Part shown: positions 28,779-49,439 of the stretch, in pieces
How positions within the stretch are numbered: position 1 is the first letter of the stretch
Layout of the letters: each line of letters starts with the position of its first letter
NCBI GenBank assembly: GCA_963692865.2
Contig: OY843592.1
Span: 3,840,001 to 3,904,000 of the forward strand
Source: a bacterium
GTDB taxonomy: Bacteria; UBA8248
Length of the DNA stretch: 64,000 nucleotides
Direction: 5' to 3'
Notes under the pieces: generated by a model
What the model was told of the DNA's origin: nothing
The model's input: the letters and a program-made list of their open reading frames with translations, nothing else
Databases searched by the model: none
Program-made: the position numbers and the translations under genes

Positions 28779-28850
28779 GATTCCTCCCTTTCGTTTTCGC
28801 TGAATCGAGACTTGACCAAGGTGAAGAAGCAGCCGCCTTCCAGACGGAGA

Positions 28851-29990: not shown

Positions 29991-30060
29991 CCCGTGTTCT
30001 CCTCCTTCCGTTTTGAGGCGAAGGCGCATCCTTCGCCGGTTTTCATGGCCTTTTCTTCGT

Positions 30061-31096: not shown

Positions 31097-31114
31097 GTCG
31101 TCTCTCCTCTCCGC

Positions 31115-31825
31115 CTAGCGATCCCCGGACGCGCCGTGCGTGAAGTATTCGCCGCGCCCCAGCGAGAGAAGCGCGTCCCAATCGAGAGACGCGCCGGCCG
31201 GACCCGCCACTTCGCCCTCCTTGCGGCCGAGATGGTTCTGGTATTTGCGCTCGAGCTCCCGGCCCAGGCGCGTGTATTCCGAAGACTTGCTCTGGTAGTC
31301 CACCGAATCCGCCGCGAGGGTCGGGTTCGAGGACTGGGCGAAGCGGCGGGCCAGCAGGTGGCAGCCCTCAGCGGCGGCCAGCCACGCTACGGCGGTCAGG
31401 TCGTTTTCGGGTACGCTCGTGCGCGCGTCGTCGGCCGTGTGCTTGATCGCGTAAAACAGGCGGAGCGTGTGGCCCATTTGAGGGGAGAAGTAGATGAGCC
31501 TGAACCTCGCCGCCGGGGTTCCTTTCGCATAGATGATCCAGGCGCTCCGCCGCAGGTAGGAGGGCTTTCTCTCCCCCTGGGGATATTCCACCTCCCGGAT
31601 GAAGGAGAGGGAATCGTCCCAGTCCTCCGGCAGGGGAAAATCGAAAGTTTCGCTGTCGCCCGCGTAATCGGCGAACGAGACGAGCGGCCTGTCCTTGCTG
31701 TAGCGCGTGAGCGCCGCGTTCACCAGATCGGCGTAGTCCGCCTCCTCGACCCCGAATTCCCGTGGCAGCGCGCCCGCCTTCAACAAAACCTTCACTTCCT
31801 TGATGATCGTCTGCCTGCCGGCCAT
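31115..31825 (-). CDS. Putative head-tail adaptor protein
   Basis: Position after capsid and decoration genes; ALTRYSKDRP, VEYPQG, ADSVDYQSKS; SD GGAGGAGG. Confidence 0.6.
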   Translation of the reverse strand: MAGRQTIIKEVKVLLKAGALPREFGVEEADYADLVNAALTRYSKDRPLVSFADYAGDSETFDFPLPEDWDDSLSFIREVEYPQGERKPSYLRRSAWIIYAKGTPAARFRLIYFSPQMGHTLRLFYAIKHTADDARTSVPENDLTAVAWLAAAEGCHLLARRFAQSSNPTLAADSVDYQSKSSEYTRLGRELERKYQNHLGRKEGEVAGPAGASLDWDALLSLGRGEYFTHGASGDR

Positions 31826-31856
31826 TTTTTCTCCTCCTCCTCGTTCTCTCGCGGCT

Positions 31857-32198
31857 TCAAGTCTTGAGCGTGAGCCTGGCCTCGAACGTAAACGAAGGCT
31901 CCTGCCCGCCGACGGACCACGCGAGCCGGAGCCAGGGGCCGACGTTCGCGAGCTTGACGAGGGTCTTGCCGGCCGAGGTGATTTGGGCAGGCCTGGTATG
32001 GACGAAAACCGCCTCATCGTCCGCAGGACCGGTCTGCACCTCGAAATCGAGCGCCGGCGAGGCGCCCGATACCGCCGTCACGTCGATGAACAAGAGCGCC
32101 TCGGTGAAGCGGCTCACCTCGAACGCCGTGCTGCCTCCCGCGGCGACGCGGGCCGCGGGTGGAGCGAGGGTGATGGTGTGGGTTCGCCTGTCGGACAT
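31857..32198 (-). CDS. Small beta-sandwich virion protein (capsid decoration-like)
   Basis: 113 aa, alternating beta pattern (IDVTAVSG.SP.LDFEVQT, WLRLAWSVGG.PSFTF), directly after capsid, SD GGAGGAG. Confidence 0.5.
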   Translation of the reverse strand: MSDRRTHTITLAPPAARVAAGGSTAFEVSRFTEALLFIDVTAVSGASPALDFEVQTGPADDEAVFVHTRPAQITSAGKTLVKLANVGPWLRLAWSVGGQEPSFTFEARLTLKT

Positions 32199-34410: not shown

Positions 34411-34462
34411 AATCTAGGGCAAGGAGTCTCTAAGGCGGGCCGCGCAAATGCGGGGAAATGCG
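34411..34462 (-). promoter_or_regulatory. Putative activator-dependent promoter of capsid/tail operon (22-bp box plus -10)
   Basis: CGCGCAAATGCGGGGAAATGCG at 34441-34462, then 24 nt, then TAGATT (minus, 34411-34416); same architecture at 49325-49376. Confidence 0.75.
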
Positions 34463-34671
34463 TATTTGACGTCTTTTTATGCAGAAATTTGATTTTGCTA
34501 ATTGCAAATCTCAAGAAAATGCGGCAACATACGGAAAATTCTGGAGTTGTGGGCAATGGGGGTGGTCCCGGCGTCTACCGATTCCGGATAATTCGCCCGC
34601 CAACTCGAAATTCCCGGATTCGCCGAGCGATAAAGACCGCCCCTTCGACGACACGAACGAGGTTTGATCTC

Positions 34672-35964
34672 ATGTGGGGCGTCGCTCAACCGGCCTTGAA
34701 TTTCTTCCAGAAACTCTCCTGGAACCATATGCTCGACATCGGGATCATGTGGTTCCTGCTCTACCAGGTCTACATTCGATTCAAGGGCACCCAGGCGATG
34801 CGCCTTCTCGTGCGCGTGTTCGCGGTCTGGCTCGTCTATCTCGCCTCCCAGGCCGCAGGCCTGCACCTGACTTCGTTCCTGCTGTGGGCCATCTGGATCG
34901 CCGTGCTCATCTTGTTTCTCATCAATTTCCACGGCGAGATCCAGAAGATATTCTTCCAGCTCAACCCGGTGCGCAGATTTTCCATCCTGCTGCGCCGGGC
35001 GATGCGCATCCGCCTGCCGGACGAGAGCGTCACCGCCATCGCCGAATCCGCCTTTTCGCTGGCGGCGAAGCACATGGGCGCCATCATCGTCGTGGAGCAC
35101 CGGGATTTGACCGACTCCCTGCTGAGAAGTCCGGGCGAGGAGATCGAGGCGGACATTCAGCCCGCGCTGCTGGAAACCATCTTCTTCAAGGGGGCGCCCT
35201 ACCACGACGGCGCCGCCGTCGTTCGCGGGAACAAGGTCTCGCGCGCGGGATGCGTTTTGCCCCTTTCGGAGAACCACGCCCTGCCGCCCGAGTTCGGCAC
35301 GCGCCACAGGGCGGCGGTCGGCATCACGGAACGCTGCGACGCCCTGGCGGTCGTCATATCCGAGGAACGCGGAGAGGTCACCTGCGTGGAGGGCGGCCAC
35401 GTCAAGGCGGTGGAGGATGAGGAGGAACTCGCCTCCTGGCTCACGGCGCGGCTGCGCGCGGCCCGCGAGGCGGGACAGACGAAAGGACGCATCTCGCTGC
35501 GCCACGTTTTCGAGAACTGGCGGCCCAAGCTCGCCGCCCTGGCCGCCGTCATTTTCCTCTGGTCGCTCGGCGGGCAGGAACACCAGAATCCGCAGAATTT
35601 CTTCCCGCAACTCGAAAGCAAGGTGGAGGAGGAATTCCGGGTCGCGGTCCACTACTACAACGTTCCCAACGGGGTCACCCTGCCGGCCGATGCGGCGAAA
35701 GAAGTCAAAATCCGCCTGAGAGGCAGGCGCGATCTCCTGAACTACATCGACGCCACCCGCCTGCGCGTAAACGTGAACCTCGCCAAAATGACGCCCGGCG
35801 CGCATTCGCGCACGCTGTCGGGCCGCGACATCGACCTGCCGAACGGTCTCGAATTCCTGAGCGCGGAACCCAGGGCCCTGAATTTGAACCTCGCCAAGGC
35901 GCCGACGCCAGAGAAAATGACGAAATCGAGCGCCTCCACCGAAACGCGCGAGTCCTCGAACTAA
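34672..35964 (+). CDS. Membrane diadenylate cyclase CdaA fused to a YbbR (CdaR-like) domain
   Basis: Three N-terminal TM helices, GAIIV, HDGA, CVLPLS, GTRHRAAVGITE, VISEERG; further TM then YbbR-like domain (VKIRLRG, VNL..MTPG, LPNGL). Confidence 0.88.
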   Translation: MWGVAQPALNFFQKLSWNHMLDIGIMWFLLYQVYIRFKGTQAMRLLVRVFAVWLVYLASQAAGLHLTSFLLWAIWIAVLILFLINFHGEIQKIFFQLNPVRRFSILLRRAMRIRLPDESVTAIAESAFSLAAKHMGAIIVVEHRDLTDSLLRSPGEEIEADIQPALLETIFFKGAPYHDGAAVVRGNKVSRAGCVLPLSENHALPPEFGTRHRAAVGITERCDALAVVISEERGEVTCVEGGHVKAVEDEEELASWLTARLRAAREAGQTKGRISLRHVFENWRPKLAALAAVIFLWSLGGQEHQNPQNFFPQLESKVEEEFRVAVHYYNVPNGVTLPADAAKEVKIRLRGRRDLLNYIDATRLRVNVNLAKMTPGAHSRTLSGRDIDLPNGLEFLSAEPRALNLNLAKAPTPEKMTKSSASTETRESSN

Positions 35965-36040
35965 GACCTCTCTTTTCAGATACCTGGATTTTCAGCGAAC
36001 CGGGAATTTGCTTTTTTCGCGCAATGGGGTGATATTGAAG

Positions 36041-36352
36041 GAACCGGGCCATCGCCGCCGAGATGTCCAAGGCGCTTTGACGAGCGATGCGGGCAAGCCA
36101 TCTTTGATGGTCCTCGGCGTCGGCCGAGTGAGGCGGGGAGGAGCCGACACAGAAAGCGGCTCCGGTCCGGTTTCGAGAAACCCCTCAAAGGAAGGAGGAT
36201 GCGATGATATCTACGATAAATCGCTTCGGCCGTGCGGAAACGCCGCCCTCCCCGGCCCCATCGCATCGGCCGGGCGGGGAGGAAAGCAAAAGGCTGATGC
36301 CCGAATAAAGGCGACATAACGCCTTCGTAAGGTGAGACGAGTTCTCGCCTCA
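36041..36352 (+). ncRNA. Candidate structured RNA (unassigned), possibly with a 34-aa ORF at 36204-36308
   Basis: Upstream TTGCTT-17-GATATT, several nested stems, downstream intrinsic terminator; no family recognised. Confidence 0.4.
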
Positions 36353-36360
36353 GAAAAAAC

Positions 36361-36399
36361 AAAAGAGAGCGGGGTGCAACGCCCCGCTCTTCTTTTTTT
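36361..36399. terminator. Bidirectional intrinsic terminator
   Basis: A-run, GAGCGGGG-loop-CCCCGCTC stem, T-run. Confidence 0.85.
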
Positions 36400-36401
36400 G
36401 A

Positions 36402-36596
36402 TTAGCTCCCGGCCTCGAGTTTCCGCATCTCGATTTCGAGTTGCTGGAGCCTGTTCTTGATCATGTTGAAGTCGTACTCGAACCCCTCGGCGAGCAGCGT
36501 GAGTCCCTGGTAGAGCCGGTGCTTTTCCGGCTCTTCTTCCGCGCTCACCGAATCGAGCATTTCGGCGAAAACCTCTCTGGCGTGATGAAAGCTCAA
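36402..36596 (-). CDS. Small hypothetical helical/coiled-coil protein
   Basis: 64 aa, purine-rich SD, host-like codon usage, ends at terminator. Confidence 0.5.
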   Translation of the reverse strand: MSFHHAREVFAEMLDSVSAEEEPEKHRLYQGLTLLAEGFEYDFNMIKNRLQQLEIEMRKLEAGS

Positions 36597-36731
36597 AACC
36601 CCTTCCCCCTTTTTGAATGATAACGCGCACCGCGAAGCGATAAATCTTTCGCGGGAAGAATCCCGCCCCTATATTTGCTAGAATCCATCGCACCGACAAA
36701 TAAACCACATCGTTTTCGAGGAGTCATCTTC

Positions 36732-37229
36732 ATGCCGGAAAGACCGAACACGCCGCAAGTCATCCTCCGCCACATCCAGGGCACGCAGCTACAGATGTTC
36801 ACCACCACGGGCAAGCACTCCTACGTGCTCGATGAGCCCGAAACGCGGGGAGGAACGGACCTCGCCGCCACGCCGTTCGAGTTCTTCATCGCCGGCCATG
36901 CGGGCTGAGGCCTCTACACGCTGCTGGGAGCAGCGAAGGCCAAGGGCATCCAGGTCGACGACGTGGAAGTCCACGCGGAGTTCAAGCGGAATTTATCGCC
37001 GAAGTTTCACGCCGATTTTCATTCGGACCCGGAGCGGAGAAAACTCGCCATCGGCGTCATCCGCACGAGCTATTACATCCATGGCGACGTGTCCGAGGAG
37101 CAAAAGGCGGAACTGCTCGACGAACTCGCCAACTGCCCCATCCACAACACGCTGATGACGCCGCCCAGGCTCGAGGAGCGGATCGTCGTTCTGGAAAAAG
37201 ACGAAACCGCGCCAAAAGAGATTTCATAA
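36732..37229 (+). CDS. OsmC-like peroxiredoxin, selenoprotein candidate (in-frame UGA at 36906)
   Basis: DEPETRGGTDLAATPFE..AGHAG-[TGA]-GLYTL..CPIHNTL; TGA occupies the catalytic Cys position; SECIS-like hairpin 36909-36941. Confidence 0.85.
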
Positions 37230-37234
37230 CGGCG

Positions 37235-37695
37235 GGGAAAGAGCCGCTTGCCAAATAAGGGATTGTTGAAAAAGTCCTCATCGCTCGGTCGATTCCTCCC
37301 TCATCGGTCGGAATCGACCACCCCCGTCATTCCGGCGAAAGCCGGAATCCATTTTGACTTTTTGCCTTCCGCATTGATTCGTGTTCGGGCAAAGACGAAA
37401 TGAAAAGCCTGAAGGTATCCCCTTCATCGGCCCCAGACTCCGCATTCTCTCCCGCCTGGGTCGTGGTTGAAATTGGAAGGAAGATCAAAAACGAAAGGCG
37501 AAAATGGATTCCGGCTTTCGCCGGAATGACGAGCAAAAACCAAATTCATCTTGGATCCCGAGAAGAGAACGCCGTTTACCGTAGGGACAGGTCGCGACCT
37601 GTGGGACAGCCCCGAGCAGGGGCAGTCACTACAAAAAACATAAATCCTCCCACATTGGATTTTTTCTACAACCCCGAAGACACCCTTCAAAACGG
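37235..37695. repeat. IR-bounded repeat element with CGTCATTCCGGCGAAAGCCGGAATCCA inverted pair
   Basis: GGATTGTTGAAAAAG at about 37260, inverted copies at about 37325 and 37505, GTAGGGACAGG palindrome. Confidence 0.75.
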
Positions 37696-37698
37696 GTC

Positions 37699-38181
37699 TT
37701 AGTAGGAAATCCTGTCCTCCATCCGCGCCCACAGGTTGAAGGATTCGAGCGCCTCGTCTTTCAGAAGCCGGGTCGATTCCAGTTTTCTTTCGCGCATCGG
37801 CAGGGCGATTTCGTTGTAGAGAAATTCATCGGAAAACCCGATGGCGTCGGCCTCGACGATGGTGTTCCCGTAATACATGCGCTCGATTCTCGCCCAGTAA
37901 ACGGCGCTCAGACACATCGGGCATGGCTCGCAGCTCGTGTATATCTCACAGCCGGACAAGTCGAAATTATTCAGTTTCGCGCAGGCCGCCCGTATGGCGA
38001 GCATTTCGGCGTGGGCGGTGGGGTCGCAAGAAGACGTCACACGGTTCGTCCCCTCGCCGACGATCTCGCCGTCCTTGACGACGACGGAGCCGAAAGGCCC
38101 GCCGAGCCCGTCCCGCACGTTTTGAGATGCGAGCGCTATCGCCCTTCTCATGAAAGATTCCCGAGTCGCCATTTTTCTCAT
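37699..38181 (-). CDS. guaD: Guanine/nucleoside deaminase (cytidine deaminase fold)
   Basis: GGPFG, DPTAHAE, YTSCEPCPMCLSAVYW, IGFSDEFLY. Confidence 0.88.
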   Translation of the reverse strand: MRKMATRESFMRRAIALASQNVRDGLGGPFGSVVVKDGEIVGEGTNRVTSSCDPTAHAEMLAIRAACAKLNNFDLSGCEIYTSCEPCPMCLSAVYWARIERMYYGNTIVEADAIGFSDEFLYNEIALPMRERKLESTRLLKDEALESFNLWARMEDRISY

Positions 38182-38377
38182 CTCCCGGTTGGCTCCGTTT
38201 TTCCGTCATCGTTTTCTTTTTACTGCGTCTATATTTTCTCCAGATTCACCTAATCATAACTTGTTTTTGGAGCCGTTTACATTCATTTTACAGGTTCTCC
38301 CTTTATCGTCTCCAGGATGCGGAGCCTGAAACAAAAGAAACCCTACGCTGCGAAATTCGCAACCCGAAAAGGAATGG

Positions 38378-39283
38378 ATGATGAAAATCGGATTTATCGG
38401 ACTGGGAAACATGGGGGCCGGCATGGCGGCCAACCTCCAGAAGGCGGGCTACGCGCTCGTCGTTCACGACATCGTGCGCGAGGCGGCGGTGGAACACTTG
38501 GAACGCGGCGCGCTCTGGGCGGATTCTCCCGAAGAGGCGGCCCGCGCGTGCGAGGTCGTCTTCACCTCGCTGCCGGGTCCAAAAGAAGTCGAGAGCGTGG
38601 CCACGGGGCCGAACGGGGTTCTCGCGGGCATCGGCGCGGGGAAGGTCTACGTCGACCTGAGCACGGGATACCCTTCAATCGTCCGAAGAATTCATGAGAA
38701 ATTCTCAGAAGCGGGCGCGCACATGCTCGACGCCCCCGTGAGCGGCTCCACCATCGGCGCGAACACGGGGCGTCTGGCCATCATGGTGGGGGGAGACGAG
38801 GAGGTGTATGAACGCTGCAAACCCCTTTTCGAGGCATTCGGCGACCGCCCCACCTACACCGGCCCGATCGGCACCGGCACCGTCTGCAAGCTCGCCCATA
38901 ACTGCATGAGTTACGGCATTCAGGCCCTCGCGGCGGAATGCTACACCCTGGGCGTCAAGGCGGGCGCCGCGCCCGAAGTATTGGCCGAGACGATCCGCAA
39001 CGGCGCGGTGGGCCGGGCCGTGCACTTCCACTTCATCTTCCCCGAGACTTTCTTCAAGGGGAAATTCGACGAACCCCACTTTCCCATGAAGGGATCGGTG
39101 AAGGACGTAGGCCTCGCGCTCAGGCTCGCCCGCGAGCACGACGTTCCCATGGCGATAGGCAACATCGCCTACGGGGAGCTCATCGCGGGGCTGAACCGGG
39201 GATGGGGGGAGGATGACGCGAGGCGCGCCATGACGCTCCAGGAAGAGCGCGCGGGCGGCGTGCAGATGAGAGTTTCAGAATAG
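38378..39283 (+). CDS. 3-hydroxyisobutyrate dehydrogenase-family NAD(P)-dependent oxidoreductase
   Basis: IGFIGLGNMG, FTSLPG, LDAPVSG, MVGGD, CKLAHN, KDVGLA. Confidence 0.92.
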   Translation: MMKIGFIGLGNMGAGMAANLQKAGYALVVHDIVREAAVEHLERGALWADSPEEAARACEVVFTSLPGPKEVESVATGPNGVLAGIGAGKVYVDLSTGYPSIVRRIHEKFSEAGAHMLDAPVSGSTIGANTGRLAIMVGGDEEVYERCKPLFEAFGDRPTYTGPIGTGTVCKLAHNCMSYGIQALAAECYTLGVKAGAAPEVLAETIRNGAVGRAVHFHFIFPETFFKGKFDEPHFPMKGSVKDVGLALRLAREHDVPMAIGNIAYGELIAGLNRGWGEDDARRAMTLQEERAGGVQMRVSE

Positions 39284-39370
39284 GAATTTCACGATTCATC
39301 CGACGGGATGCGCGTTCTTTCCGCCCGCTTTCCCGACGGAGCGGGTCATCGAGGAACGAGGAGTATTCGA

Positions 39371-40396
39371 ATGAAACACGGAATCGCCATGCTGCCACCC
39401 GCGCCCGAGACCTACGCGCACTGGTGCCGCCTCTCGGAAGAAGCGGGCTTCGACGTCATCTGGGTGCCGGACTCCCAATCCCTCTACCGGGAGCTTTACG
39501 TCTCGTGCGCCATCTGCGCGGCGAACACCACGCGCGTTCTGCTGGGGCCCAACGTCACCAACCCGCTCACGCGGCACCCCGCGACGGCGGCGAGCGCCAT
39601 CGCCACGGTGGATGAGTTCTCGGGCGGCCGCGCGCTGTTCGGGATCGCCACGGGCGACAGCGCCGTCCTGAATCTGGGCCTGCGCCCCGGCCGCGTGGAC
39701 GAGGTGCGCGATTACGTGCTCGCGATGCGCGGGATGCTGGAGGAGGGCGCCGCGCACTACCGGGGAAAACCCTGCGCGCTGAGTTGGCACAAAAAGCGGG
39801 TTCCGCTCTACATCGCCGCCGAGGGGCCGCGCACCATCCGTCTTGCGGGCGAGATAGCAGACGGCGTCACCATAGGGTGCGGCCTCACGCCCGAGGTGGT
39901 GGCGGATTCCCTCACCTGGCTGGAGGAGGGCGCCAGGAAATCGGGCCGCAAGGTGGACGATCTCGACGTCTGGTGGCTGGCGAAGGTGAACGTGCGCGAA
40001 GACGGCGAGCAAGCGCGCGAGGAAATCCGCATGGCGCTCGCCGCGAGCGCACACCACGCCTTCCGCTTCACGCTGGAGGGCAAGCGGGTGCCCGATGAGC
40101 TTCGCTCCGCCGTCGAAACCCTGAAAAAAGGATACGCGTTCCACGAGCACGAGATGGTGGACAAGCAGACGAACGCCGAACTCGTGGACGGGCTCGGCCT
40201 TCGCGAATACCTGCTGGATCGCTTCGCCGTCGCGGGCGACGCCGCGGAATGCGTGAAGCGGGTCCGCGAACTCGAAGCGACGGGCGTGGGGGCATTGAGA
40301 ATCGCCGCCCACGTGCACGACAAACCCGCCTTCATCCGGGCGTGGGGCCGCGATATCATCAGCGCAACCAAGCAACCACAGAGGACATCTTCATGA
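39371..40396 (+). CDS. Mer-like LLM class (probably F420-dependent) reductase, copy 1
   Basis: GFDVIWVPDSQ, GPNVTNPLTRHP, GIATGDSAV, YIAAEGPRT.RLAGEIADG. Confidence 0.88.
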   Translation: MKHGIAMLPPAPETYAHWCRLSEEAGFDVIWVPDSQSLYRELYVSCAICAANTTRVLLGPNVTNPLTRHPATAASAIATVDEFSGGRALFGIATGDSAVLNLGLRPGRVDEVRDYVLAMRGMLEEGAAHYRGKPCALSWHKKRVPLYIAAEGPRTIRLAGEIADGVTIGCGLTPEVVADSLTWLEEGARKSGRKVDDLDVWWLAKVNVREDGEQAREEIRMALAASAHHAFRFTLEGKRVPDELRSAVETLKKGYAFHEHEMVDKQTNAELVDGLGLREYLLDRFAVAGDAAECVKRVRELEATGVGALRIAAHVHDKPAFIRAWGRDIISATKQPQRTSS

Positions 40397-41394
40397 GACA
40401 CGGCATTTCCTTCAGACCGCCCGATACGGATTCGTTCGCACGGTGGTGCAGGCGCGCGGAAGAACTCGGCTTCGACGCGGTGTTCATCCCCGATACGCAA
40501 TCCCTTTACCGGGAGGTCTATGTCTCTTGCGCGATTTGCGCGATGGAGACGAGCGGGATCATCTTCGGCCCGTGCGTCACGAACCCCGTCACGCGCCATC
40601 CGGCGGTGGCCGCGAGCGCCATCGGCACCATCAGCGAGCTCTCCGGCGGGCGCGCCTTCTGGGGGATCGCCACGGGCGACAGCGCGGTGTTGAACTTAGG
40701 ATTAAGGCCCGCGAAGCTCGCCGAGATGCGCGAATACATCCTCGCCGTGCGGGGGATGCTCGAAGAAGGAAGCGCCGAGTACAAGGGCAGGCCCAACCGG
40801 CTGAGCTGGCACAAATCACACGTGCCCATACACATCGCCGCGGAAGGCCCCAGGACGCTGCGCCTGGCGGGCGAGGTGGGGGACGGCGTCATCATCGGAA
40901 CAGGCTTAATCCCCGAGGTCATCGCGGACACGCTCTCCTTCATCGACGAGGGCGCCAGAAAATCTGGCCGGAGGGTGGAGGATCTCGACCTCTGGTGGCT
41001 GGTGGACGCCCACGTGGACGCGGACGGCGAGCGCGCCCGCGAGGACATCCGCACCGCCCTCGCCGCGAGCGCGCACCACTCGTTCGCCTTCACGATGGAG
41101 AACAAGCGAATCCCCAGGGAACTCGCATCCGGCATCCGCGCGCTGAGAGACGGATACCAGACTTCGGAGCACGGCTTCATGGATAAATCCAACAATGCGG
41201 CGCTCGTCGATCAGTACGGCCTCAGGGACTACCTCGCCGAGCGGTTCGCGGTCGTCGGCACGCCCGAAGAATGCAGGAAGAGACTCGAAGATCTCGAAAG
41301 CCTGGGCGTCACGGGGCTTCGCATCAACAACAACCTGCCCGACAGGACCGTCTTCATGAACGCCTGGGCGAAGGACGTGCGGGGGGTTGCTTAG
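40393..41394 (+). CDS. Mer-like LLM class (probably F420-dependent) reductase, copy 2
   Basis: Same motifs as upstream paralog; ATGA overlap. Confidence 0.88.
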   Translation: MRHGISFRPPDTDSFARWCRRAEELGFDAVFIPDTQSLYREVYVSCAICAMETSGIIFGPCVTNPVTRHPAVAASAIGTISELSGGRAFWGIATGDSAVLNLGLRPAKLAEMREYILAVRGMLEEGSAEYKGRPNRLSWHKSHVPIHIAAEGPRTLRLAGEVGDGVIIGTGLIPEVIADTLSFIDEGARKSGRRVEDLDLWWLVDAHVDADGERAREDIRTALAASAHHSFAFTMENKRIPRELASGIRALRDGYQTSEHGFMDKSNNAALVDQYGLRDYLAERFAVVGTPEECRKRLEDLESLGVTGLRINNNLPDRTVFMNAWAKDVRGVA

Positions 41395-41474
41395 GAAGTA
41401 TTCATGGCCGGGCTAATGGGCAGCGGGCGGAGTGGATCGCTAAAGAATTTTGACGGCTTTACTTCAGAGTGGAT

Positions 41475-42068
41475 TCAACCACGAAAAGAATCGACTCCTT
41501 TATAATTGAGTACTGCGTTTGATTTGAGGCTCTTGATCAAAATGGCCTCTACTTGTTTACGCAATGTATCGTCCTCAATCTCAATATAAGAAGCCTGTTC
41601 GACTATCGGAGATTTGAACCAGAACTTTTCGAAATGTTGTTTCAAACGATTCTTTATGTTCTTGGATTGTCCGATGTAAATCAGGCGATCGCTTATATCG
41701 TAAAGCAGATAAACACCGGAAGTGGTAGGCCACTCTTCTTCATCATGCGGCGAAAAATCTTGGATTGACCCCAAGCCTTCTATGCGGGAGGCTTCGGCAG
41801 TATCTTTTGAATTCTCAACATCGCCTCGCGTCCATCGGTAAGTGCGATCTCCCCTTACCATCGCCCTCCGCTTTCGGAAGCCAAGGTTGCGGAGGCACTC
41901 GGCAATCCTCATCTGCGTGGGCCTGTCCAGCTTGTCCTCGTCAATGCGCAGAACATCCCGAGCGATTTCAGCAAGTGTCATATCTCCGCCATCATACGCC
42001 GAAAAGAACTCCTCGATGAAGTTTTCCCACTCGTCTATTGAGTGTTGCTCCTCGTATCGCAGCCTCAT
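41475..42068 (-). CDS. GIY-YIG nuclease domain protein with N-terminal helical DNA-binding-like domain
   Basis: GVYLLY..LIYIGQSKNIKNRLKQH..EAILI..LN; lower-GC segment; SD GAGGGAGG before ATG 42068. Confidence 0.75.
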   Translation of the reverse strand: MRLRYEEQHSIDEWENFIEEFFSAYDGGDMTLAEIARDVLRIDEDKLDRPTQMRIAECLRNLGFRKRRAMVRGDRTYRWTRGDVENSKDTAEASRIEGLGSIQDFSPHDEEEWPTTSGVYLLYDISDRLIYIGQSKNIKNRLKQHFEKFWFKSPIVEQASYIEIEDDTLRKQVEAILIKSLKSNAVLNYKGVDSFRG

Positions 42069-42373
42069 TCCCTCCCTCAATACTATAAATCGTCGGGGCA
42101 GACACACCAGACGCTTGAACCTAACTTGTTCATGGTAAGGCGTCAAGAATTTCCCAGTCGGGTTTCGGAGCATGATTTCTTCGGAAATCCTATGCCTTTA
42201 CTTCCCGAAAACCACTCTGGAACCCTCCCTTCCCCTCGAACCACAGCGGTTAGAATTGCTGGGAATTATCGCGACAGGCGGATTCGAACTCCCCGGAGGT
42301 TCATTCACAAGAGGTTGGACATGAGCGAACCGACTTGCCGCCGATTAGTTAAAGGAACACAGGAAATTACACG

Positions 42374-42568
42374 CTATTTCTCGGTATCTTCCAACCCTTT
42401 GTTGTAGCCGAGAGCGTAGATACAAAAAGGACATTTGCCAGCAGCCATCACCCTGCCCATGGGCGCATCAGGTAGCTGTTCTATCTTTTCCAGGAGAACT
42501 CTTGTTTTCTCTGGTATTTCTCGATGAGATGGTACGCTGTGTTTCGTGCAATTATTTCCAGGCCCCAT
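42374..42568 (-). CDS. Small Cys/His-containing hypothetical protein
   Basis: C..H..CPFC.YALGY pattern in low-GC island. Confidence 0.35.
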   Translation of the reverse strand: MGPGNNCTKHSVPSHREIPEKTRVLLEKIEQLPDAPMGRVMAAGKCPFCIYALGYNKGLEDTEK

Positions 42569-42658
42569 TAAATTTCTCTTTTCATAGGGATTTAACGCCA
42601 AGTATTCGTCGGGTTTGTTTTTCCTGCGCCAATCCCGACCTGCCCGACAGGACGGTTT

Positions 42659-43432
42659 TCATGAACGCATAATCGCGACTTCCGGCAATTCCGCATCCGG
42701 TTCCAACGGCAGAATTGCACGCGCTTGCGTGTAATCTCCCTCCTGCACAATTGGTGTAATTTTGCTGACTTGCCGCACCGCTATAGGGTGGCCATTGGTC
42801 GGGTCGCGACTCACCAATCCTTCCACGACAGCGTGTTTTCCCCAAACTTCTCTCATGAGATCTTCCTGACCAGATTGCAAATAACACGAAACCGGACGGT
42901 CATTCAGAGCGTCATATAGAGTGAATCGCAACACGTTTCGCTTTGTTAATGTCTGAACTTCTCCCTCCACGGCGCCAAAGGCCACAGATATTACATTTCC
43001 CGGCAGACTTAAAACGTTGTCCGCCGCTCTCGGCTTACCAGTTGGAGGATTATGCAAGATTACCGTTTCCTCTTGTGTCTCAAATCGGACTCGTTTGACG
43101 CCATTTCCAACCAAGCGTCCAAGTTTCATCGCTGGACCGGAAATTTTTCGTCCACGATCAATCCGAACATTTTCTCTAAGCGCTCTGCCAACGTCATTGT
43201 ACCCTCTTACAACCCGTTCGACCCTTTCCGATTGAAGGCTATATCCTTTAATGGTCGCTAATGCGCTCCCGGGCTGAAGGTCTTCGATCTTCCACTCAAT
43301 ACCGCCTCCCTCCTCAACCGTTAACGCACTGACGAGGCTATTCAGCGATTTTATCGCGGTGGCGAACGTCTCAAGAGTGACATCGCCTTCCAGCATCAGC
43401 GTAATCGTGTCAGGAGTCATTACTTCCCCCAT
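42659..43432 (-). CDS. Hypothetical protein in low-GC island
   Basis: 257-aa ORF with natural composition; no motif recognised with certainty. Confidence 0.6.
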   Translation of the reverse strand: MGEVMTPDTITLMLEGDVTLETFATAIKSLNSLVSALTVEEGGGIEWKIEDLQPGSALATIKGYSLQSERVERVVRGYNDVGRALRENVRIDRGRKISGPAMKLGRLVGNGVKRVRFETQEETVILHNPPTGKPRAADNVLSLPGNVISVAFGAVEGEVQTLTKRNVLRFTLYDALNDRPVSCYLQSGQEDLMREVWGKHAVVEGLVSRDPTNGHPIAVRQVSKITPIVQEGDYTQARAILPLEPDAELPEVAIMRS

Positions 43433-43698
43433 ATGGGGTTCCTAAAGGATGCGGTATTGATGGATATCCTAATCAGGATATCAATATGTCTAAGCCTATT
43501 GTCTCAAAATTTGCGTGTCAATCAATTCCCAATTCAGACCAAAACACCCCCAAAATCTCGTATTGATCCGAGAAGCGGATGCAGTTACGGCGCGAAAAAC
43601 TCTTTCTTCCCTCAGGCAGCGCCTTCGGTTAGAATGGCCGGAAATGATCGAAACGAGTGAATTCGACCTCCCCGAAAAACCTCACAATGGAGGATCAC

Positions 43699-44253
43699 AT
43701 GAGCGAAATGACGAAGGAGAAGGAAAAGATTCTCGTCTATGAACCCGTGGCGGAGGCGCCGGGCGCGGGCGCCGTCATGGCCGCGCGGCCCGAGAGCCTG
43801 AGCGGCAAGAGCGTGGGCCTCATCAACAACACCAAGGATTTCACGGATGAGATTTTCGACGTCATGGGCGCCGCGCTCGAAGAACAGTTCCCCGGCGTGC
43901 GCGTCGTGCGCTACAGGAAGGAATCCGTGAGCGGCGCATCGCCCGCCTTGATGGAGCAGGTGGAAGGAGAGTGCGACGCCGTCGTTTCCGCCCTCGGCGA
44001 CTGAGGCTCGTGCACGTCGTGGAGTATCCACGACAGCGTCGCCCTGGAGAAGAGAGGGCTTCCCACGGTCACGGTCGTCACCGACGCATTCGAGGCCTAC
44101 GCCAAACAGCTCACCAGGCTGCACAAGATGAGCGAACTTCCCCTCGTTACCCTGCCCCATCCCATCGCGGGCAGAAAGCGCGAGGAGGTGGACGAGATGT
44201 CGGCGAAGGCGAGCGCGCATCTGGCGTCCGCCCTCACGCAGGCGAGCGCTTGA
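43699..44253 (+). CDS. UGSC-motif selenoprotein candidate (in-frame UGA at 44002)
   Basis: LSGKSVGLINNTK..DAVVSALGD-[TGA]-GSCTSWSIHD..EKRGLPTV..PHPIAG; frame stays open to TGA 44251; SECIS-like hairpin 44016-44034. Confidence 0.9.
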
Positions 44254-44260
44254 TATCGGC

Positions 44261-45361
44261 ATGGACGCGCCAGAGCCCGCCCGCCGGATAGCGCTCGACG
44301 AAGACGCGGGCGCGATATACGAACACTTCTACGAGGAGGGCTGGACGGACGGGCTGCCCGTCATCCCGCCGACCGAGGAGCGCGTCTTAGAGACCCTTCG
44401 CTTCACGGACTATGCGCCGCACGACGTCATCGCCCACGTTCCGCCCCGGAATGCCCCGGCGACGGTGGAGATCATCGCCATCAACGCCGTGATGGCGGGC
44501 TGCAGGCCGGAATACCTGCCCGTTCTCATCGCCGCCGTTCAGGCCATGACGGAGCCGGCCTACAACCTCTACGGCCGCCAGACGACCACGCACCCCGGCG
44601 CGCACCTGATGATCGTCCACGGGCCGGTTCGGAACGAACTCGAAGTCAACTGCCGCCAGAACGTGTTCGGGCAGGGCCGTCGCGCCAACGCGACGCTCGG
44701 CCGCGCGGTGCGGCTCCTGATGATGAACGCCGGCGGCGGCATCCCCGGCGTGACGGACATGGCCACCCACGGGCATCCGGGCAAATACGCCTACACCATC
44801 GGCGAGGACGAGGAGGGAAGCCCCTGGCCGCCCTTTCACGTGGATAGAGGATTCGCGCCCGATACCTCCGCCGTCACCATGCTCTGCGCCGAATCGCCCC
44901 ACAACGTGAACGACCTCGTGAGCAAGACGCCGCATAAATACCTCGGCACGGCGGCTTCGGCCATGAGCCACCTGGGCGCCAACGGCGTCTACCGGAGCGG
45001 GCTGCCGAGCGAGCAGATGCTGGTGCTGACCGCGGAAGCGGCGACGTGGCTGTCGAATCAGGGGTGGTCGAAGGCCGACGTATCCCAGTTCATCTTCGAG
45101 AACGCGCGTCAGCCGATCCGCCTCATGCGCGACCGCGGCGGCTTCGACATGACGCCGCTCGCCCCCTTCGTGAACACGGACGAGGATGAGGACATGGCCC
45201 CCATCGTCCCGAGGCCGGAAGACATCCTCATCGTGGTCGCCGGCGGCCACGGCCGCCACATGCAGGCCGTCTTGACTGCGAGCTACAACCTGAGCGTCAC
45301 CAAAGCCATCACCAGAAAAGACGGAACGCCGCTCGGGTCTGTAAGGGAGTTCGTGGAGTGA
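44261..45361 (+). CDS. UGSC-associated conserved protein
   Basis: WTDGLPVIPPTEERV, IAINAVMAGCRPEY, RANATLGRA, HPGKY, EDEEGSPW; family commonly found beside UGSC proteins. Confidence 0.75.
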   Translation: MDAPEPARRIALDEDAGAIYEHFYEEGWTDGLPVIPPTEERVLETLRFTDYAPHDVIAHVPPRNAPATVEIIAINAVMAGCRPEYLPVLIAAVQAMTEPAYNLYGRQTTTHPGAHLMIVHGPVRNELEVNCRQNVFGQGRRANATLGRAVRLLMMNAGGGIPGVTDMATHGHPGKYAYTIGEDEEGSPWPPFHVDRGFAPDTSAVTMLCAESPHNVNDLVSKTPHKYLGTAASAMSHLGANGVYRSGLPSEQMLVLTAEAATWLSNQGWSKADVSQFIFENARQPIRLMRDRGGFDMTPLAPFVNTDEDEDMAPIVPRPEDILIVVAGGHGRHMQAVLTASYNLSVTKAITRKDGTPLGSVREFVE

Positions 45362-45379
45362 GGGGGGCAAATCTCCGAA

Positions 45380-45871
45380 TTACTCATAAGGTAGCGTGTG
45401 CGTCTGGATAACCTCGATATCGAAGTATCGCTCCATCTGCTTTATGCCTTGATCGTCCGAGTAAATCGTACTTTCATTTTGAGCGAGAGCGACGGCGACG
45501 ATTTGCCTGTCGTATTTGAGTTGTGCTTTCGTAAACGGAGATTGGGATTCGAACACGCGGTTCTCGTGAATTTTCTGTGTGACATGGACAAGCTTTTTCA
45601 CGGCATCAATGTCAAAACCTGCAATATGAAAGTGGCGGGATTGCTGGAGTATGGAAATCCACTCTTCTATGTTTCCTCTTGCAATAACGAGCACTTCCGC
45701 CAGTGCGGGAGTGGGTATGATGATTGGCTGGGATTTTGATTCCATATCGCGGATGAGATATTCGATCCGCTGACTCACATTGGCTAGGGGCTCACCGGTG
45801 GCGGGATCACTAGGTGGCTTGGCGTTCGGCTGCACCAAAAACATGAGAGTCGTTGCATCGAATACCGGCAT
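45380..45871 (-). CDS. PIN-domain (VapC-like) protein
   Basis: VFDAT, IIIPTPALAEVL, KYDRQIVAVA, IYSDD acidic PIN residues; low GC. Confidence 0.75.
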   Translation of the reverse strand: MPVFDATTLMFLVQPNAKPPSDPATGEPLANVSQRIEYLIRDMESKSQPIIIPTPALAEVLVIARGNIEEWISILQQSRHFHIAGFDIDAVKKLVHVTQKIHENRVFESQSPFTKAQLKYDRQIVAVALAQNESTIYSDDQGIKQMERYFDIEVIQTHTLPYE

Positions 45872-46089
45872 TACTTTCTAATCTCGACGCCTCGTTCCCT
45901 CATGAGTTCGGCATACGGGTCATCGACGCCATCGAACAACCCCAAACCTCTCATTTTGCGAACAACCGAACCGATCGACTCTTCGGCGGGTTCACGCCCA
46001 CTCGTTATATGCTCATCTTCTTGAAAATGGTTGTTGTTCCCAACGCCAAATTCAAGATTCGTTTTCTCTTCCTGATTTTTGTCGTCCAT
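45871..46089 (-). CDS. Small acidic protein, putative antitoxin
   Basis: 72 aa, stop overlaps PIN start, SD GGGGAG. Confidence 0.5.
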   Translation of the reverse strand: MDDKNQEEKTNLEFGVGNNNHFQEDEHITSGREPAEESIGSVVRKMRGLGLFDGVDDPYAELMRERGVEIRK

Positions 46090-46201
46090 GGCTCTCTCCC
46101 CTTGGACTCAATTATCCAGGAAACAGGAAATTCATACAAGCGAGAGGTTTTTGCGCCTCTTCCAACCGAGCCTCCCTTTCGCATGAAATCCGCACTCTCC
46201 C

Positions 46202-47575
46202 CTACCCATCCACGCTCATGCCGAACTGGCCCGCGAGGTGGGTGATGAGCCTGCCGGCGGCGTCATCGCTCATCCAGCCGCGTGAGGTGGCCGTCTCGAG
46301 CGCGGCGCTCACGCGCAGGAGCGCCTGGGACATCTTCTCGGTGTCGCGCACGGAGATATCCGGCAGAACGGGCGAGACGCCCGAGCGCAGCGCTTCTTCA
46401 CTCAGCGCGCCCGCGCGGCGGGCTTCCTCCAACTGCTTGTCGGCCATGGCCTGCAGGATATGGCGCACGGTGCGCTGGCGGCGCGTCATCTTCTTGAGCG
46501 TGGGCTGATCCATCGACTCGGCCGAGGCGCGGTTCACGTCCTCTCCCTGGGCGAACCAGTGGGAGGGAACGCCCACGCCGCCGAGCAGCAGGCCGCGCAT
46601 CATCTTGGCGATCCCCTGCGCGCCGGACTCGCCGCCTTTCAAGTCGGGCGAGACGGCTTGCCACTCCTCTTTCTCGTTGTGAACGCGCACGCTGGAGGGC
46701 TTGGGCGCGACGCCGTTCTCGGCGAGCCACTCGGCTATCTTCTCGGGGCCCGCGCCCTTGAGCGTTACGTCGTAGATGAAGCTGTTCTGCAGGCGCGCGC
46801 GCTCCACGGCGTCGAATATGAAGCGCTCGTAGGTGTCTATCCAGTCGATGGCGGCGAGCAGATCGGAAGCCCCGCGCGCGGCGTCGCTCGCCTTGTTTAT
46901 CTGGAACAGGAACGCCTCCCCGTCTGTGAAGCGCGCCCGCTCCTTCTGCGCGGAGGCGCTCAGGTAGCCGCGCGGGTCGCCGCCCAGCGCCGTCCGGATG
47001 CGCTTGCCCTTTCGCGCCGCCCCGCCCGGACCGTCTGCGCGCAGGACGACCCCTACGGCCAGGGCGCAGTTGTCCGGGTCCATCACCACCTCCTCTATCA
47101 GGCGCGGGCTGACGTAGCCGAGCCGGACGCGCCCCTCGAAGCGCGAGACGGCGACGGGCAGGAGGAGTTCCCCGAAGATGCCGAGTTCGGAGACCAGCCG
47201 CTCGAAGCGGATGTCCATCTGGTTCACGGGGTCGGCCCAGAACGCCTTCACGGCGCGCAGGGCGCGCTCATCCTCCCCGTGCCAGCTCACCCCCTCGCCC
47301 ACGACGTGGTCCGTAACGATCTCGATCAGCCGCTGGCCCATCAGGTTCGTGAGCCAAAGCTCATACGCCAGCGCCTGCATGCGCGCGTGGGTGTAGGGCG
47401 AAACCCCGCCGCGCCCCTCGCCCAGGGGCCGCCATATCCGCTCGTCCGGATCAATCGCCGCGCTCATTCGCCCCGAGCGCCGCGCGGCCGCCTTCACTCT
47501 CCCGGCATCTCCCTTGTTCCCGGGTCCCGACTTCCGCCCGGGAGCCTTCACCCTCTTTACACTCTCCATCCTCAT
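46202..47575 (-). CDS. Phage portal protein
   Basis: RLIEIVTDHVVGEG, FWADPVN, ELGIFGE, RGASDL, VRVHNEKEEW, GVPSHWF..DVNRASA, RRQ; directly after terminase. Confidence 0.82.
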   Translation of the reverse strand: MRMESVKRVKAPGRKSGPGNKGDAGRVKAAARRSGRMSAAIDPDERIWRPLGEGRGGVSPYTHARMQALAYELWLTNLMGQRLIEIVTDHVVGEGVSWHGEDERALRAVKAFWADPVNQMDIRFERLVSELGIFGELLLPVAVSRFEGRVRLGYVSPRLIEEVVMDPDNCALAVGVVLRADGPGGAARKGKRIRTALGGDPRGYLSASAQKERARFTDGEAFLFQINKASDAARGASDLLAAIDWIDTYERFIFDAVERARLQNSFIYDVTLKGAGPEKIAEWLAENGVAPKPSSVRVHNEKEEWQAVSPDLKGGESGAQGIAKMMRGLLLGGVGVPSHWFAQGEDVNRASAESMDQPTLKKMTRRQRTVRHILQAMADKQLEEARRAGALSEEALRSGVSPVLPDISVRDTEKMSQALLRVSAALETATSRGWMSDDAAGRLITHLAGQFGMSVDG

Positions 47576-48219
47576 CTCCTCTCGATCATCCGCTGGTGAT
47601 AAGTCCGCGGCGTCACCGTGCCCCCGGCGAAGGGGGCCAGCACGCCCTCGCTCCGCGCCAGGGACTCGGCCAGCCGCGCATAGGCGCAGGCGAAGCCGAA
47701 GTGGTTCTCGTTCCGCTCATACGCCAGCGCCGTCTCCCCGGAGGAGCGGACGCGCGGCTTTTTTCTCAAATTCATCAGGTGACGCTCCACCTCGTTCAGG
47801 AGCGCCTCCTCCCCGGTGTCCTTTGGACTCGGCAGCAGGACACGCCCGGCGCCCTCGTGGAACTCCTCCACCAGGTGATCGAGCAAATCCTCGCGGTTCA
47901 TGCGCACGTGGCGGCGCTCGACCCCCAGAAACGAGACATCCTTGATCTGCATCTCGCCCTCGGTGTGCCGCCAGATGAAGCCGCCGTCCGGATTCAAGTC
48001 GTACACCGCGCGCGCCTCCCGGGTGTGGGGTCCGCCGTCTATGACGAACGCCTCCACGCCCAGGCCCGAGAACACGGCGCGGCACCGCGCGATGAGCCGC
48101 TCGACGGGCAGGGATTCGAAATATATCCACCGGGCGGGCCGGCCCTCCCCGTGTTCGCGCACTGCAAGCGCGCAGGCGTCGCCCGTGTCGATTCCGCAGA
48201 AACGATGCGCCGCGCTCAC
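47572..48219 (-). CDS. Terminase large subunit, C-terminal RNase H-like nuclease domain as a separate gene
   Basis: GTG start overlapping upstream TGA (GTGA) with SD GGAGG 7 nt upstream; FCGIDTG, VIDGGP, NHFGFACAY. Confidence 0.78.
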   Translation of the reverse strand: MSAAHRFCGIDTGDACALAVREHGEGRPARWIYFESLPVERLIARCRAVFSGLGVEAFVIDGGPHTREARAVYDLNPDGGFIWRHTEGEMQIKDVSFLGVERRHVRMNREDLLDHLVEEFHEGAGRVLLPSPKDTGEEALLNEVERHLMNLRKKPRVRSSGETALAYERNENHFGFACAYARLAESLARSEGVLAPFAGGTVTPRTYHQRMIERR

Positions 48220-49274
48220 GCGGGCGCCTCCGCCAGGCGATAGGGCGCGGCGTCGCGCAGCTTCCCGAGCAACTCGCGGGAGATCGGCTGGGCGTCGCCC
48301 GCATCGGGGATGGCGAGCGCCGAGCAGCGAAAGCGCGCCCTCTCGCTCGGGAGGCGGGCGGCGGCCCATTTCGCCTTGATGCGGTCGAGGCGCACCGCGC
48401 CGACCGCGAGTTGGGAGAGGCGGTAGCTCCTGTGCCGCCGATTCGCCCGCGCGGCCTCCCACCGCCCCGCGCCTCTCTTGAGCGCGCCGCCACAGTCCGG
48501 GCAAGCGAGGCCGCCCCCGCGCAGGATGCCTGGCCAGTTCTCCTCCAGGACGCTCCCGGCGCGGCACGCCGGGCACCTCACGCGCCAGCGCCTCCGGTCT
48601 CCCGCCTCGTACATGGCGTGAATGCCCGCGCCCGGGGTTCTGCCGACGGCCAGGTTGAGCGTCAGGGCGAGCGGCGAGGCGTCGATGCGGTCGTTCGACC
48701 ACTTGAGGTTCTCCGGCGGCAGGTCGTCCACCTCGTCGCGAATCAGCACGTCGAGCGGAATCGATATGGCGTTGCCGATGTCCCTGAGACCCAGGATGTA
48801 GAGAAAACGCGAACCCCCGCTTCCGGGGAATTCCTTCAAGCCCTTGGGCGACGCGCCCTTGTATTCCCCATCGCGCATGAGCGAGGCGATGCGCCCGCCC
48901 CTGAGCGCGGGGCGCACGCGCGTCTGGTCGAAGCGGTCGGCGAAATCCTGATCGGGCAGAAAATAGCCCACGTTCAGGCGGTGGACGATGACGCAGTAAA
49001 GCGCAAAACCGATGGCGAACGTCGTCATGCCCACCTGCGCGCCCTTGAGGACGCTGACGGTCCGATCGGGCGCGCGATCCTTCAGCACCCCGTCGAGCGC
49101 GGCGACAATCTCCAAAAGCGCCTCTCTGCCCTCGAAGGTGAACGCGCCGGTGTCGGTCGACATCCCGCTCGTCAGAAACCGGGCCAGCCCGCGCGCCTCG
49201 CCCGAAAAGCGCGGGGCTCCGCCGGTCGTAAGGGCCATGCCGGGGGCCCGAAGGATTTTTCGGGACTTGCGCAA
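48216..49274 (-). CDS. Terminase large subunit, N-terminal ATPase domain (GpA-like)
   Basis: Walker A-like KGAQVGMTT, YFLP, Walker B DVLIRDEVD, DRRRW..CPAC..CPDC Zn motif; TTG start with SD GGAGGAG. Confidence 0.82.
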   Translation of the reverse strand: MRKSRKILRAPGMALTTGGAPRFSGEARGLARFLTSGMSTDTGAFTFEGREALLEIVAALDGVLKDRAPDRTVSVLKGAQVGMTTFAIGFALYCVIVHRLNVGYFLPDQDFADRFDQTRVRPALRGGRIASLMRDGEYKGASPKGLKEFPGSGGSRFLYILGLRDIGNAISIPLDVLIRDEVDDLPPENLKWSNDRIDASPLALTLNLAVGRTPGAGIHAMYEAGDRRRWRVRCPACRAGSVLEENWPGILRGGGLACPDCGGALKRGAGRWEAARANRRHRSYRLSQLAVGAVRLDRIKAKWAAARLPSERARFRCSALAIPDAGDAQPISRELLGKLRDAAPYRLAEAPA

Positions 49275-49324
49275 TGCCGGAACTCCTCCAGTCCAAGGAT
49301 GCCGCGCGCATCCTCACGGGGAGG

Positions 49325-49376
49325 AATATAGGGGATGGGGGCCGTGAGCCATGACGCGCAAATGCGGGGAAATGCG
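49325..49376 (-). promoter_or_regulatory. Putative activator-dependent promoter of terminase-portal operon (22-bp box plus -10)
   Basis: CGCGCAAATGCGGGGAAATGCG at 49355-49376, then 24 nt, then TATATT (minus, 49325-49330). Confidence 0.75.
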
Positions 49377-49439
49377 CGGTTTGCGGGGAACATCGTTTCT
49401 ACCCCGCCGATGCGGGATGGTTTGCCGGGCGGCGGGAAA

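Follow-up and report, generated by a model that had tools for sequence, protein, structure and literature searches.

A conserved direct-repeat box at a fixed distance from -10-like hexamers marks dispersed phage-derived operons: a candidate activator site in a gene-transfer-agent-like element

To our knowledge, the control of gene transfer agents (GTAs) has been worked out almost only in Alphaproteobacteria. Outside GTAs, OmpR/PhoB-type response regulators and phage lambda CII recognise direct repeats in tandem that adjoin or cover the -35 position, and they contact polymerase. Here we describe a stretch of 64,000 nucleotides from a bacterium of the GTDB lineage UBA8248 (contig OY843592.1, positions 3,840,001 to 3,904,000 of the forward strand), called the window below. 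It carries a 22-bp direct-repeat box upstream of two operons of phage-structural genes, one beginning with a protease-capsid fusion and the other with the large terminase. The box, its spacing and its conservation in relatives lead us to propose that it is probably the site of an activator.

Few independent GTA families are recognised (PMC9662315). In the GTA of Rhodobacter capsulatus (RcGTA), GafA binds near the -10 and -35 positions of the main cluster and of dispersed accessory loci (PMC9638019). GafA-dependent promoters lie at the main cluster and at the head-spike, tail-fibre and lysis loci (PMC9638019; PMC6363796), with putative activator sites at two of three accessory loci (PMC9638019). 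The Caulobacter crescentus GTA is activated by GafY and IHF, and GafZ acts in anti-termination (PMC11150451). Its activator element lies at about -123 to -113, the IHF site falls between this element and the core promoter, and a second factor is placed between -35 and -10 (PMC11150451). In the Bartonella GTA (BaGTA), processive antitermination by BrrG links two loci, and a -10-like element is required (bioRxiv 10.1101/2024.11.20.624540).

In the window, the 22-mer CGCGCAAATGCGGGGAAATGCG occurs exactly at 34441-34462 and 49355-49376 and nowhere else, with up to three mismatches allowed; dinucleotide-preserving shuffles gave no match (0/100). Read on the gene strand (minus), both copies are CGCATTTCCCCGCATTTGCGCG: two CGCATTT units with a 10-nt period, plus GCGCG. 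Each box is followed on that strand by exactly 24 nt ending in CCC and then by a hexamer, TAGATT (34416-34411) or TATATT (49330-49325). Both stand upstream of phage-structural genes on the same strand, where the protease-capsid open reading frame (ORF) starts at 34314 and the terminase ATPase ORF at 49274. The elements of the two promoters are:

34441..34462, minus strand: box 1, ahead of the capsid operon, predicted to lie at about -58 to -37
34411..34416, minus strand: -10-like hexamer TAGATT of the capsid operon, four of six columns invariant in 15 aligned species
49355..49376, minus strand: box 2, the identical 22-mer upstream of the terminase/portal operon
49325..49330, minus strand: -10-like hexamer TATATT of the terminase operon, a pattern match

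An earlier, sequence-only reading of this DNA had described the two copies in the same orientation relative to the genes, the 7-mer found twice per box with a 10-nt period, and the 24-nt spacer ending in CCC before each hexamer. Each of these was recovered when both sites were read directly. The same reading called the spacers otherwise dissimilar, and this does not hold: they are identical at 13 of 24 positions (binomial P = 0.004), a value reached by 0.5% of random pairs of window 24-mers. Because this identity exceeds chance, a common ancestry of the two window promoters is probable, and some of the spacer may be under constraint as well.

The combination of a proximal half-site, 28-30 nt and TANNNT occurs twice in the 64 kb, both times at the boxes, against an expectation of 0.29; two or more matches appeared in 7 of 100 shuffles. 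A scan of the gene strand for the sigma-70 consensus reports no promoter at either window site. The expected -35 positions read CCGCCT and ATGGCT, both non-consensus.

How far beyond the window does this architecture extend? A search of genome contigs with an alignment of 29 capsid sequences returned 79 loci, the window's own genome not among them. L001-L023 belong to this lineage (capsid 57-91% identical), and the distant loci are L024-L079 (31-46%). At 22 of the 23 lineage loci the region ahead of the capsid gene is covered. Two half-sites, a 29-nt gap and TAnATT are present in 20 of these 22. The box is of the GCATTT type in 15 (mismatches to the 22-mer: none in nine, one in four, two in one and five in one), and a pair of GAAnnT/GAATTT-type half-sites takes its place in five others (L016-L019 and L023, the last a mixed GAATTA/GCATTT pair). 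L015 keeps the proximal half-site only.

An alignment of 15 upstream sequences locates the constraint. Invariant columns number 16 of 22 in the box, against 4/24 for the spacer, 4/51 and 2/75 for stretches farther upstream and 3/70 for the leader. Conservation also rises at the hexamer (4/6), in the 11 nt that follow it (6/11) and at the ribosome-binding site with its TTG start (10/18). Box, 29-nt gap and hexamer are thus kept before the capsid gene while the flanking intergenic DNA has diverged, which bears out the earlier preference for selection over recent duplication.

We also searched with a regular expression: a half-site within two mismatches of its partner, N4, G[AC]A[ACT]TT, 28-30 nt and TAn[AT]nT. 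In the window and the clade loci together (428,811 bp) it finds 27 sites, 26 of them on the gene strand before phage-like genes. The gap is exactly 29 nt in all 26, though 28-30 was allowed. Their hexamers are TAGATT (18), TATATT (3), TAGTTT (2), TACATT (2) and TAAATT (1), with A2 and T6 in every one. As a control, the 56 distant loci (1,068,171 bp) contain two sites, in L034 and L038, both AT-rich gut alphaproteobacterial contigs.

Two relatives carry the box at several promoters of one locus. L018 is a complete chromosome with a capsid 67% identical to that of the window; its portal and capsid genes share a strand and are separated by about 1.3 kb, in which a short sulfatase-modifying-enzyme-like ORF runs the other way. 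Within 22 kb it has five promoters of the box architecture, one before the portal gene, one before the capsid gene and three before tail-side genes. All five share CCCCGAATTTCCGGTAGTTGG; the portal promoter has a degenerate distal half-site and the hexamer TAGGCT. Among the genes after these boxes are four copies of one for a small transmembrane protein, ORFs with a weak likeness to tape measures, and genes for a 485-aa protein and for a protein with an F5/8-type-C domain. L016 has GAACTT/GAATTT boxes at three promoters; the third is followed by an ORF with matches to tape-measure families (phrog_1535, 9.5e-7), and adjoining this ORF is a lectin-domain protein. A regulon of virion genes, as the sequence-only reading had supposed, therefore finds support in one locus each of L018 (five promoters) and L016 (three), before portal, capsid, tape-measure-like and lectin-domain tail genes. 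Because each genome's version of the half-site recurs at all its promoters, a dedicated trans-acting recogniser is indicated. In the window's own branch, tail genes are not adjacent to the capsid operon; any that it has would be located at another place.

Positions 16850-20650 of L018 consist of tandem modules in which a promoter box is paired with a gene for a small protein that spans the membrane once. The four copies of this protein are 57-72% identical, and the modules are interleaved with the tape-measure-like ORFs. Two copies of the same module occur in L016. Homologues of the L018 485-aa protein, sought as a lead to the tail genes of the source lineage, amounted to two near-identical matches and were uninformative.

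What do the two window operons encode? The capsid operon, all on the minus strand, reads as follows:

32233-34314, minus strand: protease-major capsid fusion, 693 aa (PF25209 1.2e-46; phrog_29592 5.5e-133; phrog_4523)
28196..32198, minus strand: head-completion and tail genes overall, syntenic and intact in relatives
31857-32198, minus strand: g113, small head-completion gene
31115 to about 31840, minus strand: g300, small head-completion gene
30587-31096, minus strand: Neck1/tail completion (phrog_5 3.9e-11)
30061-30615, minus strand: g184, of the head-completion/tail gene group
28851 to about 29990, minus strand: tail-tube-like (PF18906 3.5e-13)
28386-28778, minus strand: g130, 130 aa, small ORF after the tail-tube-like gene
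28196-28447, minus strand: g83, 83 aa, last ORF of the operon

The capsid ORF has a TTG start 6 nt past the GGAG core of an AAAGGAG Shine-Dalgarno sequence, and the head-completion and tail genes include a further family match (phrog_290, 2.5e-16). At the end of the operon g130 and g83 overlap by 62 nt in different frames, an arrangement that recalls the siphophage tail-chaperone pair ahead of tape-measure genes. Neither has a family match, and no tape-measure gene lies downstream in the window's branch.

The terminase and portal operon is also on the minus strand:

48216-49274, minus strand: ATPase part of the large terminase, 352 aa, gpA-type (PF05876 6.6e-16; phrog_675 7.8e-48)
47572-48219, minus strand: nuclease part of the large terminase, about 215 aa (phrog_675 9.5e-12, profile positions 357-547)
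46202-47575, minus strand: portal protein (phrog_10963 3.7e-46), its ATG overlapping the terminase stop
45380..45871, minus strand: 163-aa protein, accessory, at the operon end (phrog_21691; weak PIN-like match)

By tblastn, the 163-aa gene is at the same position in L001, L009, L012 and L020 and absent in L005, L007, L010, L013 and L014.

The terminase genes overlap: the first ends in a TGA stop (48218-48216), the second begins at a GTG (48219-48217) that shares bases with this stop, and the junction in L014 (2-963) is identical. A plot of G+C at third codon positions shows the frame change near 48.2 kb. We considered a frameshift or pseudogene; the conserved TGA/GTG overlap and the short homologues rule out decay. 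Among 70 homologues of the ATPase part (lengths searched, 193-616), all 53 at 53% identity or above are 194-408 aa long, and all 17 at 46% or below are 552-611 aa. As read from these genes, the large terminase is a conserved split throughout the lineage, with two ORFs predicted to be translationally coupled and presumably working as two separate polypeptides.

The inheritance of the set can be followed in its homologues. Capsid homologues (116 proteins) form a graded series from 89% to 50% identity whose few named sources are Nitrospinae, Nitrospinota or Tectomicrobia; the remainder are ordinary phage capsids at 39% or less, plus three shorter matches (58-63% query coverage, 40-42% identity). 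The 70 terminase ATPase homologues follow the same graded pattern and then drop to 46% or less. The lineage is known only as metagenome-assembled genomes. The arrangement of portal, the same cellular genes in order, capsid operon through g83 and cupin gene is identical in 12 loci (L001, L002, L005-L010, L012-L014 and L020); in L002 the cupin gene begins 82 nt after g83.

Against seven relatives, the ratio of nonsynonymous to synonymous substitution rates (dN/dS) is 0.10-0.45 for seven phage-like genes, including 0.15-0.25 for the capsid, and 0.05-0.70 for neighbouring cellular genes. Values of dS are similar, 0.29-0.63 for the capsid and 0.24-0.63 for the diadenylate cyclase (DAC). The in-frame stops seen in the tube gene precede its true start, except in L018, where there is a stop at residue 71.

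By their layout, the window's phage-derived operons are not a prophage, because the module is cut by about 11 kb of conserved cellular genes and its position is fixed across species. Because the layout is conserved in 12 loci, and dN/dS and dS resemble those of cellular neighbours, the gene set appears to have travelled with the chromosome and to have been kept by purifying selection. It is most likely a GTA-like domesticated element and a putative member of the GTA class. What the earlier reading called virion operons would be parts of an interrupted set that appears vertically inherited, not parts of a phage genome.

We think it likely that the box is the site of a dimeric or tandem activator that would switch on all particle operons together. 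A dedicated sequence-specific factor, most likely an activator, would recognise the box and would set two subunits or domains on the same face of the DNA, on two direct repeats of 6-7 nt that lie 10 nt apart. If transcription starts about 7 nt past the hexamer, as we assume, the half-sites fall at about -57 to -52 and -47 to -42. A factor bound at these positions would help the housekeeping RNA polymerase, by recruiting or stabilising it, to use promoters with a good -10 (TAnATT) and no usable -35. The result would be a coordinated switch-on of the split large terminase, portal, protease-capsid, neck and tail-tube genes and, in relatives, of the tape measure and the lectin-domain tail protein. 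That these promoters depend on a factor had been proposed from the letters alone; the lack of a usable -35, the empty sigma-70 scan and the half-site changes that run in concert within genomes all point the same way.

It is unlikely, in our judgement, that recognition of the promoters falls instead to a dedicated alternative sigma factor, or to a protein that resembles or remodels sigma, with the box and an nTGG as an extended upstream element. The invariant block of L018 consists of the proximal half-site and the next 11 nt and so runs into the -35 region, and TGG recurs at the same distance in L015, L016, L018, L019, L023 and the window's terminase site. GafA of RcGTA, moreover, has a sigma-like domain and binds near -10/-35 (PMC9638019). 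But TAnATT keeps the A2 and T6 typical of a housekeeping -10, the repeats lie 29 nt from the hexamer, too far for the same sigma's -35 contact, and the capsid promoters of the GCATTT group lack the TGG.

Conservation by itself cannot separate positive from negative control, and GTA systems are tightly held off; in Caulobacter a repressor acts upstream of the activators (PMC11150451). Could the box be a repressor operator that silences the particle genes, with induction by loss of the repressor? We consider this improbable, for the box lies wholly upstream of the -35 position and overlaps neither the -10 nor the start, and promoters without a -35 should be weak unaided and thus need no repressor.

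UP elements, bound by the alpha subunits of polymerase, act in the -40 to -60 zone, and the two ATTT tracts of the box lie about 10 nt apart in what would be that zone. A factor-independent element, in which phased T-tracts serve as an UP element or a bend, is nevertheless very improbable: the G/C positions of the box are as invariant as its T-tracts, the C to A change in the half-sites is made in concert within lineages, and within 64 kb the element occurs only at the two phage-derived operons. Least probable of all is a merely historical identity (a duplicated promoter fragment, gene conversion, or a packaging or recombination site with no role in transcription). It would account for spacers more alike than chance allows and for a box just upstream of terminase genes, where packaging sites often occur. 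It would not account for a box that persists where its surroundings are unalignable, that keeps its 29 nt to a -10-like hexamer in every case, that stands before operon starts, those of tail operons among them, and that is missing from the neighbouring dispersed repeat family.

Several observations weigh against the activator proposal or narrow its base. L011 has no box; beginning with the spacer, its upstream sequence is unrelated, and the contig ends 200 nt away. Among close relatives (capsid 87-91% identical) the intergenic DNA can still be aligned, which means that exact boxes there cannot be counted as independent, and the real footprint comes down to about 10 deeper lineages. In the GCATTT group the terminase box is known from the window only, the 10-kb flanks of the relatives ending inside the terminase or portal gene; a box at both operons is thus established for the window and extended to other genomes by analogy with L018 and L016. 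Of the three L016 sites, two share an identical stretch of 51 nt, perhaps through one recent tandem duplication. The L018 block that reaches the -35 region would also fit a sigma-like recogniser. Box 1 lies beside, or in the leader of, a divergent cdaA-like gene and could serve the cyclase too. The evidence on off-target sites covers the capsid loci and the window, and the window ORFs scanned include no DNA-binding protein that is a candidate for the box.

Individual candidates for the regulator were set aside. The translation of ORF 49640-50185 is low-complexity junk; ORF 43612-44262 has a dN/dS of about 1 and contains stops; the 64-aa ORF at 36402-36596 is conserved but acidic and without a family match; and the 163-aa ORF is weakly PIN-like and variably present. 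ORFs at 59.7-64 kb match no DNA-binding family, and the small ORFs after the L018 boxes encode the repeated small transmembrane protein. No Pfam match to the GafA/GafY-like domain (DUF6456, per PMC9638019) was found among the ORFs scanned in the window, L015-L018 and L023; such a regulator may be encoded at another site of the genome. The repeat sequence itself agrees with no motif that could be verified. Integrase, repressor, replication and lysis families are likewise absent among the scanned ORFs of the 64 kb and beside the relatives' loci.

Around the promoters, one further sequence is conserved:

34514..34534, minus strand: distal element, conserved, in which GCATTT appears once more; about 71 nt upstream of box 1

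It contains a two-mismatch match to the box core at 34517-34532, and its columns are invariant at 10 of 21 positions in the five most diverged sequences and at 7 of 21 in the 15-sequence alignment. It may be a second site for the factor or belong to the divergent cdaA-like promoter. A string, ATGTT..CCGCA, that loosely resembles it stands directly upstream of box 2. We found no third window promoter: allowing two mismatches in the core gives 4 matches against 3.72 expected, and of the two additional matches one is the distal element and the other lies within the neck gene, on the opposite strand.

The leaders are short, about 90 nt for the capsid operon and 45 nt for the terminase operon. They (34330-34410 and 49275-49320, minus strand) contain GC-rich hairpins and no terminator. 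The consensus fold of the 15 capsid leaders is weak (-5.35 kcal/mol, 10 pairs); a single small hairpin is kept across the 15 species, with weak covariation support. An RNA element was sought with Rfam at the gathering threshold, which returned only a transfer RNA at 2575-2646. A terminator-like hairpin formed from box 1 on the plus strand was also rejected: it has three G-C pairs (weak), is absent at box 2 and is on the wrong strand.

Between the two operons lie cellular genes:

34489..45361, strand not assigned: cellular genes between the two operons (about 11 kb), in the same order in 12 relatives
34489-35964, plus strand: diadenylate cyclase with DAC and YbbR domains, divergent from the capsid promoter

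Besides this cdaA-like cyclase they comprise a deaminase, a dehydrogenase, three luciferase-like monooxygenases and a low-GC insert with a GIY-YIG gene. The adjacency of cyclase and capsid is kept even in the distant L015 and L023. A cyclase start at 34489 would leave box 1 only 27 nt upstream; in several relatives the similarity is in frame only from about residue 41-47, and the true start may be near 34621.

The stretch 41400-44300, between the second and third luciferase-like paralogues, is low in GC (0.51 at 42-44 kb) and is probably a later insertion. It holds the GIY-YIG ORF, short internal repeats and a 257-aa ORF found only in some relatives (L002, L006, L008).

A dispersed repeat family with a palindromic core occurs at 26950-27920, 49438-49564 and 51570-51692. 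The tail operon is followed by two units in tandem, each about 475 bp long; a copy in inverted orientation lies 62 nt from box 2 on its upstream side, and another follows the ammonium transporter gene. In appearance the family resembles a miniature mobile element or a repetitive extragenic palindromic (REP)-like element. We asked whether the box might belong to this family; none of the copies contains it.

The rest of the window is cellular, with genes for F420 biosynthesis, an ammonium transporter and ATP-binding cassette (ABC) transport. A glycogen-branching-enzyme-like gene (4361-6276, minus strand) appears as two overlapping ORFs, 5215-6276 with CBM48 and the start of the catalytic domain and 4361-5278 with the C-terminal all-beta domain, which suggests a frameshift or a sequencing error. 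An IS110-family transposase (55706-56746, minus strand) and an ORF with a HigB-like toxin domain (13748-14242, minus strand) are ordinary and unrelated to the box.

A short promoter signature ties dispersed phage-derived operons together in a lineage accessible through metagenome-assembled genomes, and it offers three handles: a motif with which to list the regulon in public complete chromosomes, a C to A switch in half-site specificity that can be matched to co-variation in the regulator, and a promoter ready for reporter assays. Only tentatively do we put forward the wider proposal that the Nitrospinota/Tectomicrobia-labelled lineage may carry an independently arisen, previously undescribed GTA family, with a split terminase, operons set among housekeeping genes and a dedicated activator whose co-evolved box marks every operon. 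If so, the box (GCATTT in one branch, GAATTT in another) would be a ready-made genomic marker for the remaining loci and for the regulator. A literature search pairing "gene transfer agent" with Nitrospinota, Nitrospinae or Tectomicrobia returned nothing about such an element, as judged by title and the start of the abstract.

How, then, does this locus compare with described systems? As in RcGTA, phage-derived particle genes sit at several chromosomal loci under one promoter signature, which in RcGTA is served by one dedicated DNA-binding activator. The host lineage is another, and the capsid (PF25209) and split gpA-type terminase differ as judged by their Pfam and PHROG names. Unlike RcGTA, here cellular genes cut even the head-packaging module, and the motif is a direct repeat of 10-nt period at a fixed 29 nt from the -10. 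With the Caulobacter GTA the locus shares a weak or absent -35 and an upstream element, and Caulobacter too has co-regulated accessory loci elsewhere. Here, however, the repeats directly abut the -35 position, and there is neither a conserved terminator nor a strong leader structure. With BaGTA it shares separate loci of a domesticated phage system, which in BaGTA are coordinated by one regulator at a promoter-proximal site; but BaGTA uses a long attenuating leader, whereas the window leaders are short and have no terminator.

A prophage on a Paracidovorax citrulli contig (L027) shares the portal family phrog_10963, the capsid fusion family phrog_29592 and Neck1 phrog_5 in the same order. Unlike the window, its module is uninterrupted. 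The terminase there is undivided (556 aa) and the tape measure 1182 aa long, and genes for an endolysin, a small-terminase-like DNA-binding protein and head morphogenesis are present; the regular expression found no promoter of the box architecture in L027. In promoter design the sites of OmpR/PhoB-type regulators and of lambda CII offer a likeness: there, too, a pair of direct repeats separated by about one helical turn stands at or just upstream of a missing -35, with a normal -10, a resemblance that by analogy would suit an activator touching polymerase.

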